Assembly: GCF_013167455.1 (NCBI RefSeq)
Contig: NZ_CP038328.1
Direction: 5' to 3' (one strand)
Origin: Escherichia coli O157:H7
GTDB lineage: Bacteria; Pseudomonadota; Gammaproteobacteria; Enterobacterales; Enterobacteriaceae
DNA: 64,000 nt
The position numbers and the translations under genes are program-made. This document shows positions 11,409-52,634 of the stretch, in pieces (within the stretch, counting starts at the first letter, position 1; the number at the start of each line of letters is the position of its first letter). A model generated the notes under the pieces. It made no database searches. It saw nothing but the letters and a program-made list of their open reading frames with translations, and was not told where the DNA came from.

Positions 11409-11930
11409 ATGGCTATTATTCTCGGCATTGATCCGGGTTCGCGCGTGACCGGCTACGGCGTCATCCGCCAGGTAGGTAGGCAACTGTCCTACCTGGGTAG
11501 CGGATGCATACGCACCAAAGTGGATGATTTACCGTCTCGTCTGAAACTCATCTATGCGGGCGTGACGGAAATCATCACCCAGTTCCAGCCCGATTATTTC
11601 GCCATTGAACAAGTCTTTATGGCAAAGAACGCTGACTCAGCCCTGAAACTGGGCCAGGCGCGCGGCGTGGCGATTGTGGCGGCGGTGAATCAGGAGTTGC
11701 CAGTATTTGAATACGCGGCACGTCAGGTAAAGCAAACGGTGGTAGGTATTGGTAGTGCCGAAAAAAGCCAGGTGCAGCATATGGTCCGCACCTTGCTGAA
11801 ACTGCCCGCTAATCCACAGGCGGATGCCGCCGATGCGCTGGCGATTGCCATCACCCACTGCCACGTTAGTCAGAATGCGATGCAGATGAGCGAATCGCGG
11901 CTGAACCTGGCGAGAGGGCGACTGCGTTAA
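11409..11930 (+). CDS. ruvC: Holliday junction resolvase RuvC
   Basis: 173 aa from the second ATG ([18 protein letters not shown]). Confidence 0.9.
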
Positions 11931-11931
11931 G

Positions 11932-12534
11932 TTATACCGCCTCGGTCAGTTCCGGCTGAGGCGTTTCCACTCCCTCCGCATGAATCAACACCAAACCTGG
12001 ATGATGCCACAAACTGGCTGGCGTGACGGTTTTACGCTCCCACGGAATAGAACCCAGGAACCAGAATTTCCAGAAAGTGAGTTTTGCATTCGGATTGCTA
12101 TTTAACAATTCTCCAAACGTCTCTATTTCACCCACCGGAATACATAGCGCTTCTTTATAAATATCAAAAACAAATTTTGAACAGAACTGGCGCGAAGATT
12201 CGTATTTAAAACCGGTGTGGTAAAGTTTGCGTAGCCGGGAGGGAACCTGTTCAACAATTCGTTGTTTTTGTTGTTCTGTCAGCCCAGCGTCTAATCGCTT
12301 TATAGCATAGCGTTGATTAGACGAACGTTTAATAAAACGAGATAGCGTGGTGATGGTTGAAAGGGGAACCCGGCTTTCTGCAACCAGGAAGTCTTCACCG
12401 TTATGACCGATAATGATCCCGACGTGATTACTCCAGCAATTTGATGCAGCTGATATTTGACCAAATAAGGCAGCACCTATACATGTAAAGACTTTATCTC
12501 CAATTTCATATTCAGCAGGGTAATTAATATTCAC
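11932..12534 (-). CDS. yebB: Uncharacterised protein YebB
   Basis: About 200 aa if started at GTG 12534 (reverse complement cac at 12532..12534); convergent with ruvC. Confidence 0.7.
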
Positions 12535-12741
12535 GTTGTCATTCCATTGAAATAGATACGAATATACGTAATAGCATAAAAAATTTATTTTTTCAGGAGG
12601 CGCAATGTATATTTTTATTACGCATTTCTTCACTGAATATGTAATATTAAAATATTTACTTCCAATATAACCTGTAGAATAAATTATACTGTGCCATTTT
12701 TCAGTTCATCGAGACACCTCGCAAGTTTTTTTCATCCTTCG

Positions 12742-12757
12742 CTGGATATCTATCCAG
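12742..12757 (+). promoter_or_regulatory. LexA (SOS) box upstream of ruvAB
   Basis: CTGGATATCTATCCAG, palindromic CTG-N10-CAG, 52 nt upstream of the ruvA start. Confidence 0.75.
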
Positions 12758-12808
12758 CATTTTTTTATCATACAGCATTATCTTTGATTCATTACGCAGG
12801 AGCGTCAT

Positions 12809-13420
12809 GTGATAGGCAGACTCAGAGGCATCATCATTGAAAAACAACCCCCGCTGGTGTTAATTGAAGTGGGCGGCGTAGGCTATGAAGTGCATATGCC
12901 GATGACCTGTTTTTATGAACTCCCTGAAGCGGGTCAGGAAGCGATCGTTTTCACCCACTTTGTGGTGCGTGAAGACGCGCAACTGCTGTACGGTTTTAAC
13001 AATAAACAAGAGCGCACGTTGTTCAAAGAGTTGATCAAAACCAACGGCGTCGGCCCGAAGTTGGCGCTGGCGATCCTCTCCGGAATGTCAGCGCAGCAGT
13101 TCGTTAATGCCGTTGAGCGTGAAGAAGTGGGGGCACTGGTGAAACTGCCGGGTATTGGCAAAAAAACCGCCGAACGCTTGATTGTTGAAATGAAAGACCG
13201 ATTTAAAGGTTTGCATGGCGATCTCTTTACGCCAGCCGCCGACCTGGTACTCACGTCTCCTGCCAGCCCGGCGACCGACGATGCTGAACAAGAAGCGGTT
13301 GCCGCGCTGGTGGCGCTGGGCTATAAACCACAAGAAGCAAGCCGCATGGTGAGCAAAATCGCTCGCCCTGACGCCAGCAGTGAAACATTAATTCGCGAAG
13401 CCCTACGCGCCGCGTTATGA
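12809..13420 (+). CDS. ruvA: Holliday junction branch migration protein RuvA
   Basis: 203-aa ORF. Confidence 0.95.
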
Positions 13421-13425
13421 GGTAA

Positions 13426-14439
<1,014 letters not shown>

Positions 14440-28056: not shown

Positions 28057-28101
28057 GTGTCTTTATTGCTGGTGTTGATCTCTCAACCGAAAAGAAATAT
28101 A

Positions 28102-28117
28102 CTGTATAGAATCACAG
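28102..28117 (+). promoter_or_regulatory. LexA (SOS) box upstream of yebG
   Basis: CTGTATAGAATCACAG = CTGT-N8-ACAG, 20 nt before the yebG start. Confidence 0.75.
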
Positions 28118-28136
28118 TTATTATGAGAGGCTGCAA

Positions 28137-28427
28137 ATGGCGGTTGAAGTTAAATACGTAGTCATTCGTGAGGGCGAAGAGAAAATGTCGTTTACCAGCA
28201 AAAAGGAAGCCGATGCTTATGACAAAATGCTTGATACGGCGGATCTGCTTGACACCTGGCTGACAAATTCTCCAGTGCAAATGGAAGACGAGCAACGTGA
28301 AGCCCTTTCGCTATGGCTGGCAGAACAAAAAGATGTGCTGAGCACCATTCTGAAAACCGGCAAATTACCGTCCCCACAGGTCGTCGGTGCTGAATCCGAA
28401 GAGGAAGATGCCTCACACGCGGCCTGA
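28137..28427 (+). CDS. yebG: DNA damage-inducible protein YebG
   Basis: 96-aa ORF. Confidence 0.85.
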   Translation: MAVEVKYVVIREGEEKMSFTSKKEADAYDKMLDTADLLDTWLTNSPVQMEDEQREALSLWLAEQKDVLSTILKTGKLPSPQVVGAESEEEDASHAA

Positions 28428-29176: not shown

Positions 29177-29836
29177 ATGGCTAACTGGTTAAATCAACTG
29201 CAATCCCTGCTTGGGCAAAGCAGTTCTTCTACCTCCTCGTCTGCGGATCAGGGATTGGGCAAACTTTTAGTGCCGGGCGCATTAGGCGGACTGGCTGGAC
29301 TGCTGGTCGCAAATAAATCAGCACGTAAACTTCTTACGAAATATGGCACCAACGCGTTGCTGATTGGCGGCGGAGCGGTAGCGGGTACGGTGCTGTGGAA
29401 TAAATACAAAGATAAAATTCGCGCGGCGCATCAGGACGAACCGCAGTTTGGCTCGCAAAGTACGCCGCTGGATGAGCGTACGGAACGTTTGATCCTTGCG
29501 CTAGTCTTTGCCGCTAAAAGTGATGGTCATATTGATGCCAAAGAACGTGCGGCAATCGACCAGCAATTGCGTGAAGCCGGCGTGGAAGAGCAGGGGCGGG
29601 TACTCATTGAGCAGGCAATCGAACAACCGCTGGATCCACAACGCCTGGCTACCGGGGTCCGCAATGAAGAAGAGGCGCTGGAAATCTATTTCCTGAGCTG
29701 CGCGGCTATTGATATTGACCATTTTATGGAACGCAGTTACCTGAATGCACTGGGTGACGCGCTGAAAATCCCCCAGGATGTTCGTGAAGGCATTGAACGC
29801 GATCTCGAACAGCAAAAACGCACTTTGGCGGAATAA
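29177..29836 (+). CDS. yebE: DUF533 inner membrane protein YebE
   Basis: 219-aa ORF. Confidence 0.85.
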
Positions 29837-38741: not shown

Positions 38742-41375
38742 TTATTTGGGAAGCGCAGTTCCCCATTCACGCCACTCTTTCGGTTCACTTTCCTGCAACA
38801 GGAAGTGCTTGCCTTCCTGGGCTTTCGGTGCCAGTGGCGTACCCGGAGGCGTGGCGAAGGCGATGCCGCCACGGATAAACTGGTTAAAGGTGCCGGTTTT
38901 CACTACGCCGCCCGTCAGACCAAAGTCCAGACTGTAACCCGATGCCAACCAGAAGACGGAATTGTTACGCACCAGGTGTTGATAGCGTTTACTGATGCGC
39001 ATCGCAATCATCACGCGATCTGACAATGTCCCCAGCGTCATTCCGGTAACCGTACCGACTTCCAGACCACGGAACAGCACAGGCGTACCGATGCCTAACG
39101 AACAGGCTTCCGGCGCTTCAACAATAATGCTTAAACCATCCAGGTAACGCGAATCAGTAATGGTGGCCTCTTGTAATTCAAAGTCGCGACGAGGATTGCC
39201 ACGGCCTGGTTCGACGTTGATATACGGCTGGAGGATAGTATCAAGATGCTCAACGCCAGCTGCCGAAATTTGCGGTGTGACCACTGAGAAGCGCGTACCA
39301 CCGCGAGCAAAGGTCTGGACATATTCCGGATAGAGCACCGCCTTTGCCTGTACTTCATTGCGCGCGGTAATCAGATCCAGCGTCTGGATTTGCCCGATAT
39401 CAATACCGAGATAGCGAATTGGCATCCCGACCGCCAGTTTTCCGGCATCGAAAGCATGAAGCGTAATCTGCCCGCCAACCGCACGGGCCGCTGTTTCGGA
39501 AGCATACAGAATACGCTTATCGCCTTTACGCTGACTGGCGCTGGCACCGCTGAGGTTATCGAAGCTAATGGCTCCCTTTAATGCTCTGGAGAGTGGGGAT
39601 GCCTGTACGGTCAGGCCACTACCATTCAGCTGAACTTTCGCCCCGCCTTCTGCCCAGAACACGCTATTGTTGGTCAGAAGGTTGCGATACTCCGGCTTAA
39701 TATGCAGATCGATATCAAACGCGTTAGCTCGCGGACGCACGGTAATAACTTCACCAACTTCAAATTTACGGTACAGCACTACCGATCCTGCCTGCACATC
39801 CGGCAGCGTCTCTGCACTCAAACTCACGGTTGTGGTGGGTAAATCGCTAAGGCTGTTCTCCAGCGCTTTTTCCAGATTGGCATACAGTGGATAGCTGGCT
39901 TTCATCTCACCTTTATCGCCCGGCAGAATACGTATCCCGCCATTGATCCATTCTGAGGCGCTGGCACCGAGAAACTCAACGCCATCCAGCCCCACCTTCA
40001 CATCGACACGGCTGTTGACGACAAATTTGCTATCGCCTTTTACCAGTTCGCGATGCTGAGGCTCAATGGCGACGGTAAAGGTAACGCCTTTGCTGGTGAG
40101 TTTACGATCAATAACCTGGCCTACCTGCACGCCGTGAAGAATGAGCGGCTGACCAGCATCAATACCGTAACTTTCCGGTGCTGTCAGGGTCAGTGTCAGA
40201 ACATCAGGTTCATGCAGCAGTGCTTTTTCGCCTGGCACAACAACGAACTCTTTGCGTGGCTCGCCATCGCCAGGCACCAACTCAAAGGTTTTTCCGGTCA
40301 GCAGGGCGCTGAGATTGGCATCGCTAAGGGATAATTTCGGGTTGCGTAATTCGATGCGGGTATTTTCCCGTAACAGCGTAACGACGCTGGGATCAACGGT
40401 CATTTCTCCGGTGACTTTACCACCAGGATTTAAATCCAGTTTAGTCAGCTGTCCGACTTCCAGCCCCTGATACATTAACGGCGTCGAGTCGGCGGTTAAT
40501 CCGGCCCCACTCGGCAGTTCCAGTTTTATTATTACGCCACGCTGGCTGTGGGCCAGATCTTCATACAGACCAAAGGTATCTTCCGCCTCGGCAGGTTTCG
40601 ACTCTTCTGGTGAATCGAAGGCAATCGCACCGTTAACCAGTGCCGCCAGACTTTCCAGTTTCACCTTCGCGCCACTGATACTGACGTTGGCATCAACGCC
40701 TGAAACGTTCCAGAAACGGCTACCTTTTTTCACCAGGTCGGTAAAACGCCGCTCGATCAGGACATCAATCACCACGCCTTGTTTATTGGGATTGATGGCA
40801 TAGTCGTAGACTTTTCCCACCGGGATCTTGCGGAAATAGACCAATGAACCGCTGTTCAGCGAACCGAGATCGGGAGCTTGCAGGTGGATCATCAGATCGC
40901 CGTTATCCAGCCGATACTTCGGTTGGGTATCGAGCGCGACAAAGTGATCCTGCTCTTTACCTTTACCTGGCATCATGCCGATATAGTTACCACCGACGAG
41001 GGCGTCCAGCCCGGAGACACCTGCCAACGATGCTTTTGGCGTCACCAGCCAGAACTGAGTCTCTTCGCGCAGCGCATCTTTCATATCGGACTTGATGCTG
41101 ACCTTGACTTCAATCTTACGAAGATCGTCGCTGAGGCTGATATCCTGCACTGTTCCGACTTCAACGCCCTGATAACGAACAGGCGTACGGCCCGGGACAA
41201 TACCATCCGCCGACATAAAGTCGATGGTGACGGTATTACCCCGGTCCTGATAACTGTCCCAAATCAGCCAACCGGCAATCATTAGCGCGATGAACGGCAG
41301 CAGCCAGAAAGGTGAGATACGGCGTTTATTTTTAATCTGCGCTTCAGTCGTCGAAGCGGGCGTTTCCTGACTCAT
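38742..41375 (-). CDS. letB: Lipophilic envelope-spanning tunnel protein LetB (YebT), multi-MCE-domain
   Basis: 877 aa from the internal ATG ([10 protein letters not shown]); N-terminal TM helix then repeated MCE-like modules. Confidence 0.85.
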
Positions 41376-51824: not shown

Positions 51825-52634
51825 ATGTCGTTTTCCTGTCCACTTTGCCATCAGCCTCTTACGCGTGAAAAAAACAGCTATATCTGTCCCCAACGACATC
51901 AGTTTGATATGGCGAAAGAAGGGTATGTCAATCTGCTGCCCGTTCAGCATAAACGGTCTCGTGATCCGGGCGACAGCGCGGAAATGATGCAAGCACGCCG
52001 CGCATTCTTAGATGCCGGACATTATCAGCCGCTGCGTGATGCAATTGTCGCCCAACTGCGTGAACGGCTTAATGAAAAGGCCACGGCGGTGCTGGATATT
52101 GGCTGTGGTGAAGGGTATTACACACACGCATTTGCCGATGCGTTGCCCGAAATCACCACGTTTGGTCTGGATGTTTCGAAGGTAGCGATAAAAGCGGCGG
52201 CGAAACGCTATCCGCAGGTCACTCTTTGTGTCGCTTCCAGCCACCGTTTGCCGTTTTCCGATACCAGTATGGACGCCATAATACGTATTTACGCGCCGTG
52301 TAAAGCAGAAGAATTAGCACGAGTAGTGAAGCCCGGCGGCTGGGTCATTACTGCCACGCCGGGACCGCGACATTTGATGGAGCTGAAGGGGCTGATTTAC
52401 AATGAAGTACATCTTCATGCACCTCATGCAGAACAACTGGAAGGTTTTACATTACAGAAGAGTGATGAGTTGTGTTATCCGATGCGTCTTCGCGGTGATG
52501 AAGCCGTCGCATTATTGCAGATGACGCCGTTTGCCTGGCGTGCGAAGCCAGAAGTCTGGCAAATACTGGCAGCAAAAGAAGTGTTCGACTGCCAGACGGA
52601 CTTTAATATTCACCTCTGGCAGCGTTCTTATTAA
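51825..52634 (+). CDS. rlmA: 23S rRNA m1G745 methyltransferase RlmA
   Basis: 269 aa; N-terminal Cys4 zinc motif (CPLC...CPQRH), SAM motif DIGCGEGY. Confidence 0.9.

Follow-up and report, generated by a model that had tools for sequence, protein, structure and literature searches.

The recombination-repair genes ruvA and ruvB, controlled by the DNA-damage repressor LexA, have figured in textbooks as an SOS operon since 1988. In the stretch of Escherichia coli DNA analyzed here, 64,000 nucleotides (nts) long and hereafter called the window, the palindrome CTGGATATCTATCCAG stands shortly before ruvA, and a run of T residues follows it. The question raised by this locus is whether the palindrome serves ruvAB as its LexA operator (SOS box), and whether the same letters, read from upstream, would also form the stem of an intrinsic terminator.

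The palindrome upstream of ruvA

The original prediction placed a LexA box upstream of ruvAB, and CTGGATATCTATCCAG was read from the window at exactly the position given there, 12742-12757. Its description as a near-perfect palindrome holds, as 7 of the 8 symmetric pairs are complementary; when compared with its own reverse complement, 14 of the 16 bases match. The distance to ruvA, given as 52 nts, was reproduced by counting from the last base of the box to the first base of the GTG initiation codon (12809). The box and the features downstream of it are as follows.

12740-12759, unstranded: the 20-mer used for scoring, CGCTGGATATCTATCCAGCA
12742..12757, unstranded: core 16-mer CTGGATATCTATCCAG of the very probable LexA operator (SOS box), from sequence, heterology index, K-12 identity and conservation
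12743..12748, + strand: -35 hexamer TGGATA, inside the LexA box, from the promoter scan and PMC3946193
12766..12771, + strand: -10 hexamer TATCAT after a 17-nt spacer, from the promoter scan and PMC3946193; it fits the mapped start site
12777, + strand: transcription start site (TSS) of ruvAB, an A, leaving a 32-nt 5′ UTR, from SMRT-Cappable-seq (PMC6131387, supplementary file 4)
12798..12802, + strand: Shine-Dalgarno sequence AGGAG of ruvA, from the sequence, in columns conserved across species
12809..13420, + strand: ruvA, 203 aa, initiated at GTG, the operon's first gene, an ORF annotated as RuvA
13429..14439, + strand: ruvB, 336 aa, the operon's second gene, an ORF annotated as ruvB in O157-type chromosomes and co-transcribed with ruvA from one start site

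The window is E. coli DNA of the O157 type, and the 1-kb region around the box is 100% identical to O157-type chromosomes. K-12 and the window do not differ at all over 12731-12811, and three SNPs (12560, 12658 and 12730) lie farther upstream of the box. The 25-mer TTCGCTGGATATCTATCCAGCATTT, given as the LexA motif of ruvA among the UV-induced K-12 genes in Table 4 of PMC3009722, is identical in the window.

Heterology index of the box and of other sites

The heterology index (HI) was calculated by the Berg-von Hippel/Lewis formula with a matrix from the 18 LexA boxes in Table 4 of Thomassen et al. 2010 (PMC3009722), and an independent matrix was made from 16 published E. coli boxes, leaving out ruvA and yebG. 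With the 16-site matrix the 20-mer at 12740-12759 scored 8.0, and by leave-one-out it scored 8.5, the 17 other published boxes ranging from 0.6 to 12.6. Fernandez de Henestrosa et al. 2000 reportedly arrived at about 9.2 for the ruvA site. Among the 127,962 20-mers on both strands of the window, the ruvA box ranked second, and a site with HI of 8.6 or lower was present in one of 20 random 64-kb Markov sequences. The original prediction had named a LexA PWM scan with HI calculation as its check and an index well above the range of functional sites as the outcome that would speak against it. The scores of 8.0-8.5 lie within the functional range, and the box is thus an imperfect CTG-N10-CAG palindrome with HI below approximately 12.6-15, the cut-off used for LexA-repressed genes being about 15 (PMC11002266).

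Copies of the bare CTG-N10-CAG layout number 27 in the window, compared with 12.7 expected from shuffles; most lie in coding sequence, and the codon usage of CTG and CAG presumably accounts for the excess. The layout by itself therefore over-calls SOS boxes and is a poor detector at this number of matches per 64 kb, whereas the HI scan singles out exactly the two true boxes. For such a scan, the ruvA box is useful as a positive control.

The only site that scored better than the ruvA box, and therefore the best LexA-like site in the window, is 28100-28119 (HI 5.9). A second SOS box had been proposed at 28102-28117, and it is real, standing 19 nts upstream of a 96-aa yebG-like ORF (28137-28427). 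This yebG box reads TACTGTATAGAATCACAGTT in the window and TACTGTATAAAATCACAGTT in published K-12, with one central A-to-G change. Four further sites (29183-29202, 424-443, 40422-40441 and 52435-52454) have HI of 11.5-12.0, nominally in the functional range, and most of them are without an intact CTG or CAG arm.

One more copy of the layout lies near the ruvA box.

12689..12704, unstranded: second CTG-N10-CAG, CTGTGCCATTTTTCAG (20-mer TACTGTGCCATTTTTCAGTT), just after the yobI stop

If this motif were an operator too, ruvAB would be controlled by two cooperating LexA sites. It stands 53 nts upstream of the ruvA box with consensus-like TA/TT flanks, and the 1988 ruv papers may have mentioned two SOS-like sequences. 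However, its HI of 15.1-16.9 is at or above the usual cut-off, its box positions differ among E. coli (CTGT to CTGC, CAGTT to CAGAT), none of the other genera examined has the motif, and its location at about -88 to -73 from the TSS is upstream of the promoter. We consider a pair of cooperating operators very unlikely. The motif was rejected as a second operator for its HI of 15-17 and its lack of conservation even within E. coli and is probably non-functional in that role.

Promoter overlap and LexA control

A consensus scan returned one sigma-70-like promoter, TGGATA-17-TATCAT. Shimada et al. 2014 assigned the same two hexamers to a SELEX peak of the RNA polymerase sigma-70 holoenzyme, located between yobI and ruvA (PMC3946193). 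The TSS was transferred from MG1655, where SMRT-Cappable-seq places the start of the operon b1861 and b1860 (ruvA and ruvB) at 1946008 on the reverse strand (PMC6131387). The ruvA start of MG1655, 1945976, equals position 12809 of the window, and the identity of K-12 and the window in this region gives 12777. The supplements of the 2016 Cappable-seq study list no TSS near the ruvA box. Relative to the TSS at 12777 the box extends from -35 to -20 and contains the -35 hexamer, the classical placement, in which bound LexA would occlude the promoter and should block RNA polymerase. By the standard SOS mechanism, a LexA dimer on the ruvA box would keep RNA polymerase from the -35 region, and upon DNA damage RecA-ssDNA filaments would cause self-cleavage of LexA and so free the ruvAB promoter.

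Published expression data from K-12, whose sequence is identical here, indicate that the downstream gene is induced by damage. In a UV tiling array ruvA was among the induced genes carrying the motif (PMC3009722), and in a ciprofloxacin time course ruvA and ruvB showed a log2 fold change of about 1.0-1.6, or approximately 2-3 fold (PMC11002266). A review catalogues ruvAB under 'known SOS box' in E. coli (PMC6590174). The box is a middling one, with CTGG/CCAG arms instead of CTGT/ACAG and poor flanks, and would thus be expected to give leaky repression and a modest induction of about 2-3 fold. The modest response to ciprofloxacin fits such an operator. In Salmonella, ruvA was absent from the loci that nalidixic acid upregulated and was added to the list by hand, and it was grouped with the genes of LexA-independent basal expression (PMC8072944); LexA regulation of ruvA may be weak there. 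A further Salmonella report (PMC9879122), consulted for ruvC and ruvA expression, gave mutant phenotypes only.

Conservation of the box

CTGGAT-N4-ATCCAG was unchanged in all of the 78 usable ruvA loci of Enterobacteriaceae, and in 76 of them the distance from the box to the GTG was 50-55 nts. Variation in these loci was confined to the central 4 nts and the flanks, with HI of 7.4-11.1. The same pattern was present in Serratia, Providencia, Erwinia and Pectobacterium, 82 Enterobacterales species altogether, indicating that the operator is kept at the orthologous promoters of relatives. Across 39 distinct sequences from five families, the six core pairs (12 stem bases) were constant while the loop and flanks varied. 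Stems that are purely structural, such as those of terminators, normally drift through compensatory change. Because the core pairs never vary while loop and flanks do, the constraint appears to be sequence-specific and not merely structural. Within E. coli, the box region was found in 5,425 of 5,426 complete genomes, and the box, T-run, -10 hexamer and UTR were unchanged even in the most divergent strains.

In Pseudenterobacter timonensis and Enterobacter sp. RIT418, about 125 nts are inserted between the unit of box, T-run and -10 hexamer and ruvA. The box stands beside the ruvC stop in both, 178 nts from the GTG, and the 5′ UTR is much longer.

That the palindrome arose by chance and has no function might be argued from the abundance of CTG-N10-CAG in the window, at twice the expectation. 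The HI rank, the overlap with the promoter, the published induction and the invariance in 82 species speak against it; conservation effectively refutes this reading, and we regard it as next to impossible. The claim of a LexA box upstream of ruvAB is instead supported by the HI, the identity with the K-12 motif, the listing as a known SOS box, the -35 overlap and the conservation. Thus, CTGGATATCTATCCAG is very probably the LexA operator of the ruvAB operon, LexA binding itself and lexA-dependent expression being taken from reviews. The ruvAB SOS box is already known, the site is base-for-base that of K-12, and there is nothing new in it as a LexA box.

A hairpin and a T-run over the operator

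The original prediction recognized the LexA site correctly but missed the weak motif at 12689 and also the terminator anatomy, in which the palindrome is combined with a T-run.

12741..12758, + strand: RNA/DNA hairpin GCTGGAT-ATCT-ATCCAGC, 7-bp stem and 4-nt loop, flagged as terminator-like by the scan, from scan and folding
12760..12766, + strand: T7 run right after the hairpin, a putative U-tract that lies also in the promoter spacer, from sequence and conservation

The hairpin of the window folds with -10.6 kcal/mol (z = -5.7), and none of 200 shuffles folded equally well. The consensus scan that returned the promoter also called an intrinsic terminator here, formed by GCTGGAT-ATCT-ATCCAGC and the letters after it, ATTTTTTT, with an A and then U7 after the stem. 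A stable stem-loop followed by a U-rich tract was found in the window as well as in Salmonella and 46 other loci. Attenuation of the ruvAB mRNA itself by this hairpin was considered and rejected, since the TSS at 12777 is downstream of both the hairpin and the T-run; the ruvAB mRNA begins 3′ of the hairpin and is therefore not attenuated by it.

Anatomy and comparative data suggest that, read from upstream, the palindrome and T7 would form an intrinsic terminator. Alternatively, the element may be LexA operator and promoter only, the hairpin being a by-product of the palindrome and the T-run mere spacer, an explanation that concerns the terminator layer alone. What bears on this choice is the context of the hairpin in other genomes. 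ruvC was located in 61 loci, and in 47 of these, which are without yebB and yobI, it lies immediately upstream of the element on the same strand. The ruvC-ruvA intergenic region of the 47 loci is 73-83 nts long, and the ruvC stop is 6-14 nts (median 12) ahead of CTGGAT. Their stem is 9-10 bp long, (A/G)AGGCTGGAT-N4-ATCCAGCCT(T), with -14.6 to -15.3 kcal/mol, and is followed by T6-7; for the Salmonella hairpin, the terminator scanner and the folding tool agree with this stem length. The GG/CC flanks that extend the stem raise the HI from 8.0 to 10.6 and, because they worsen the LexA score, are not selected for LexA binding, which is difficult to reconcile with an element that is operator and promoter only.

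The extension of the stem also accompanies the adjacency of ruvC. Stems had a median length of 9 bp at loci with an adjacent ruvC (n = 49) and of 7 bp at those with a separated one (n = 29), a difference whose nominal p of approximately 1e-11 comes from loci that are not phylogenetically independent. In 47 loci of Enterobacteriaceae, and in 3 of the 4 loci from outside this family, the hairpin begins 1-22 nts past the ruvC stop, and the intergenic region of about 80 nts holds no other terminator candidate; in Pectobacterium the full box is 145 nts after the ruvC stop owing to an insertion. Where ruvC is separated, the hairpin is in most loci preceded, at a distance of 30-85 nts, by the end of another + strand ORF, and in the window the hairpin is 71 nts past the yobI stop.

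The T-run lies between the -35 and -10 hexamers, so that its conservation could be related to the promoter, in line with the operator-and-promoter explanation. Nevertheless, it is more than 90% conserved across species, which is unusual for spacer sequence, and adjacent positions of the spacer and UTR vary. Moreover, Serratia, Erwinia, Pectobacterium and Providencia have an extended -10, TGnTATAA(G/C/A/T), 4 nts farther downstream than in E. coli, and the T-run is kept as T6 in these families. Its retention despite the shifted -10 argues against a purely promoter-spacer explanation.

Three other observations favor an operator without a terminator. The Term-seq table of K-12 (Adams 2021, PMC7815308) has no 3′ end at MG1655 19460xx and none under yobI or ruvA, and a search of the TERMITe data (PMC12207403) by gene name and partial coordinates gave no 3′ end at the site, these tables being of strong ends only and yobI being possibly poorly expressed. 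Covariation of the hairpin was no better than in shuffles, the six core pairs being constant and the outer pairs varying without compensation; however, the test is uninformative because the stem is invariant. Finally, the tiny yobI is the sole co-directional gene upstream in E. coli. An Rfam scan of 12450-12900 found no known RNA family, with a chance match only (E = 0.95, 21.7 bits versus a gathering score of 50). Weighing these points, we regard an element of operator and promoter only as possible but doubtful.

The opposite extreme is a pure intrinsic terminator of ruvC or yobI, with a coincidental likeness to an SOS box and no LexA control of ruvAB. Its canonical anatomy would agree with this, as would the modest induction of ruvA and its escape from one Salmonella screen. 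A terminator alone, however, does not account for 12 stem bases identical in 39 distinct sequences of five families with a varying loop, nor for a functional HI that is second best in 64 kb, the induction of ruvA by UV and ciprofloxacin and its catalogued SOS box, or the coincidence of the box with the -35 of a mapped promoter. This explanation is extremely unlikely.

The reading we lean towards, from sequence comparison, is that of an element of about 30 nts, Enterobacterales-wide, with three jobs: LexA operator, -35 of ruvAB and terminator stem of nudB-yebC-ruvC. In K-12, nudB-yebC-ruvC is recorded as an operon of its own (PMC6131387). In most Enterobacterales the hairpin would end the nudB-yebC-ruvC transcript, and termination there would stop constitutive read-through that bypasses the LexA control of ruvAB. 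That the hairpin functions as a terminator in genomes with ruvC directly against it is moderately likely; that it terminates yobI transcripts in E. coli is a little less likely.

Insertions between ruvC and the hairpin

In E. coli the gene upstream of the hairpin is a different one.

12605..12670, + strand: yobI, a small protein of 21 aa, whose transcript would run into the hairpin; annotation from a 100%-identical E. coli record

In O157-type annotation, the genes upstream of ruvA are yobI (+), yebB (-) and ruvC. The yobI promoter reads TTGTCA-15-TACGAA at 12536-12562, and the SNP at 12560 falls in its -10 hexamer, the K-12 promoter having been published as TTGTCA-15-TACAAA (PMC3946193). ruvC (+, ends 11930) and yebB (-, ORF ends 11932) converge with their stops 1 nt apart (window 11928-11934), which in E. 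coli leaves no intergenic room for a terminator of either gene.

The junction at which the ruvC stop meets the hairpin resembles a hotspot of insertion (window 11930-12741; loci L002-L081 and L084). yebB (-) and yobI (+) are found there in E. coli and a few other genera, an SDR-like ORF of about 290 aa in Kosakonia and Phytobacter, and a + strand ORF of about 220 aa in several genera; the E. coli strain R32_14_1F carries a different hypothetical gene at this place. The break of homology at the junction is always just 5′ of the hairpin. In Pectobacterium atrosepticum (L086:1274-1500), the ruvC-ruvA spacer is 227 nts long; a shortened copy of the left arm, GGCTGGATATTCATCC, directly follows ruvC, the full box comes 145 nts past the stop, and the two are separated by an insert of about 127 nts that is rich in GC and folds strongly. 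This insert resembles a small mobile element of the MITE or REP kind that entered the hairpin with target duplication.

In our reading the element is ancestrally composite, joining the terminator of the ruvC operon, the LexA operator and the -35 of ruvAB. In E. coli, the entry of yebB and yobI between ruvC and the hairpin would have relaxed the terminator constraint, with the operator and promoter constraint staying. The stem would then have shrunk to the LexA core and one G-C pair, and would at most terminate yobI transcripts.

Implications of the proposed overlap

The proposed overlap of operator, terminator and promoter is a small, testable addition to a known site and a modest example of regulatory compaction. 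If it is true, about 80 nts of intergenic DNA would insulate the SOS-regulated ruvAB from the constitutive ruvC unit, and a resolvase gene expressed constitutively and a branch-migration operon induced by damage would be regulated separately at that distance. It would also give a concrete reason for the middling LexA affinity, explaining the LexA-poor GG/CC flanks, and would explain why decay has left only the LexA core of the stem wherever genes of foreign origin entered the junction of ruvC and the hairpin; gene insertions would thus relax one of two overlapping constraints and leave the other frozen. The searchable literature yielded no description of an operator/terminator overlap here, and the ruv papers of 1988-1991 may have remarked on it.

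Comparison with known systems

The K-12 ruvAB SOS box (ruvAp) has the same 25-mer, gene order, promoter hexamers and TSS, and there is no difference within the element. With canonical intrinsic terminators, the element shares a G/C-containing stem of 7-10 bp, a 4-nt loop, U6-7 and a position just after a co-directional stop. It differs from them in that the ruvA stem is frozen, holds the -35 and the operator, and has no 3′ end in the E. coli tables searched.

Compared with other LexA boxes, the CTG-N10-CAG architecture and the position over the promoter are shared with those of sulA, umuDC, recN and yebG. These boxes carry CTGT...ACAG arms between TA flanks, score 0.6-6 in HI and are rich in A/T, and the hairpins expected of them would be weak, whereas the ruvA box differs from such strong boxes in its G/C-richer arms, an HI of about 8 and a modest induction. 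In the LexA box of cho (ydjQ), CACTGGATAGATAACCAGCA, the arms are likewise the unusual CTGG...CCAG, with G for T at position 4. Its HI is 7.9 versus 8.5 for ruvA by leave-one-out, and its palindrome, with the center GATAGATAAC, is weaker than that of ruvA.
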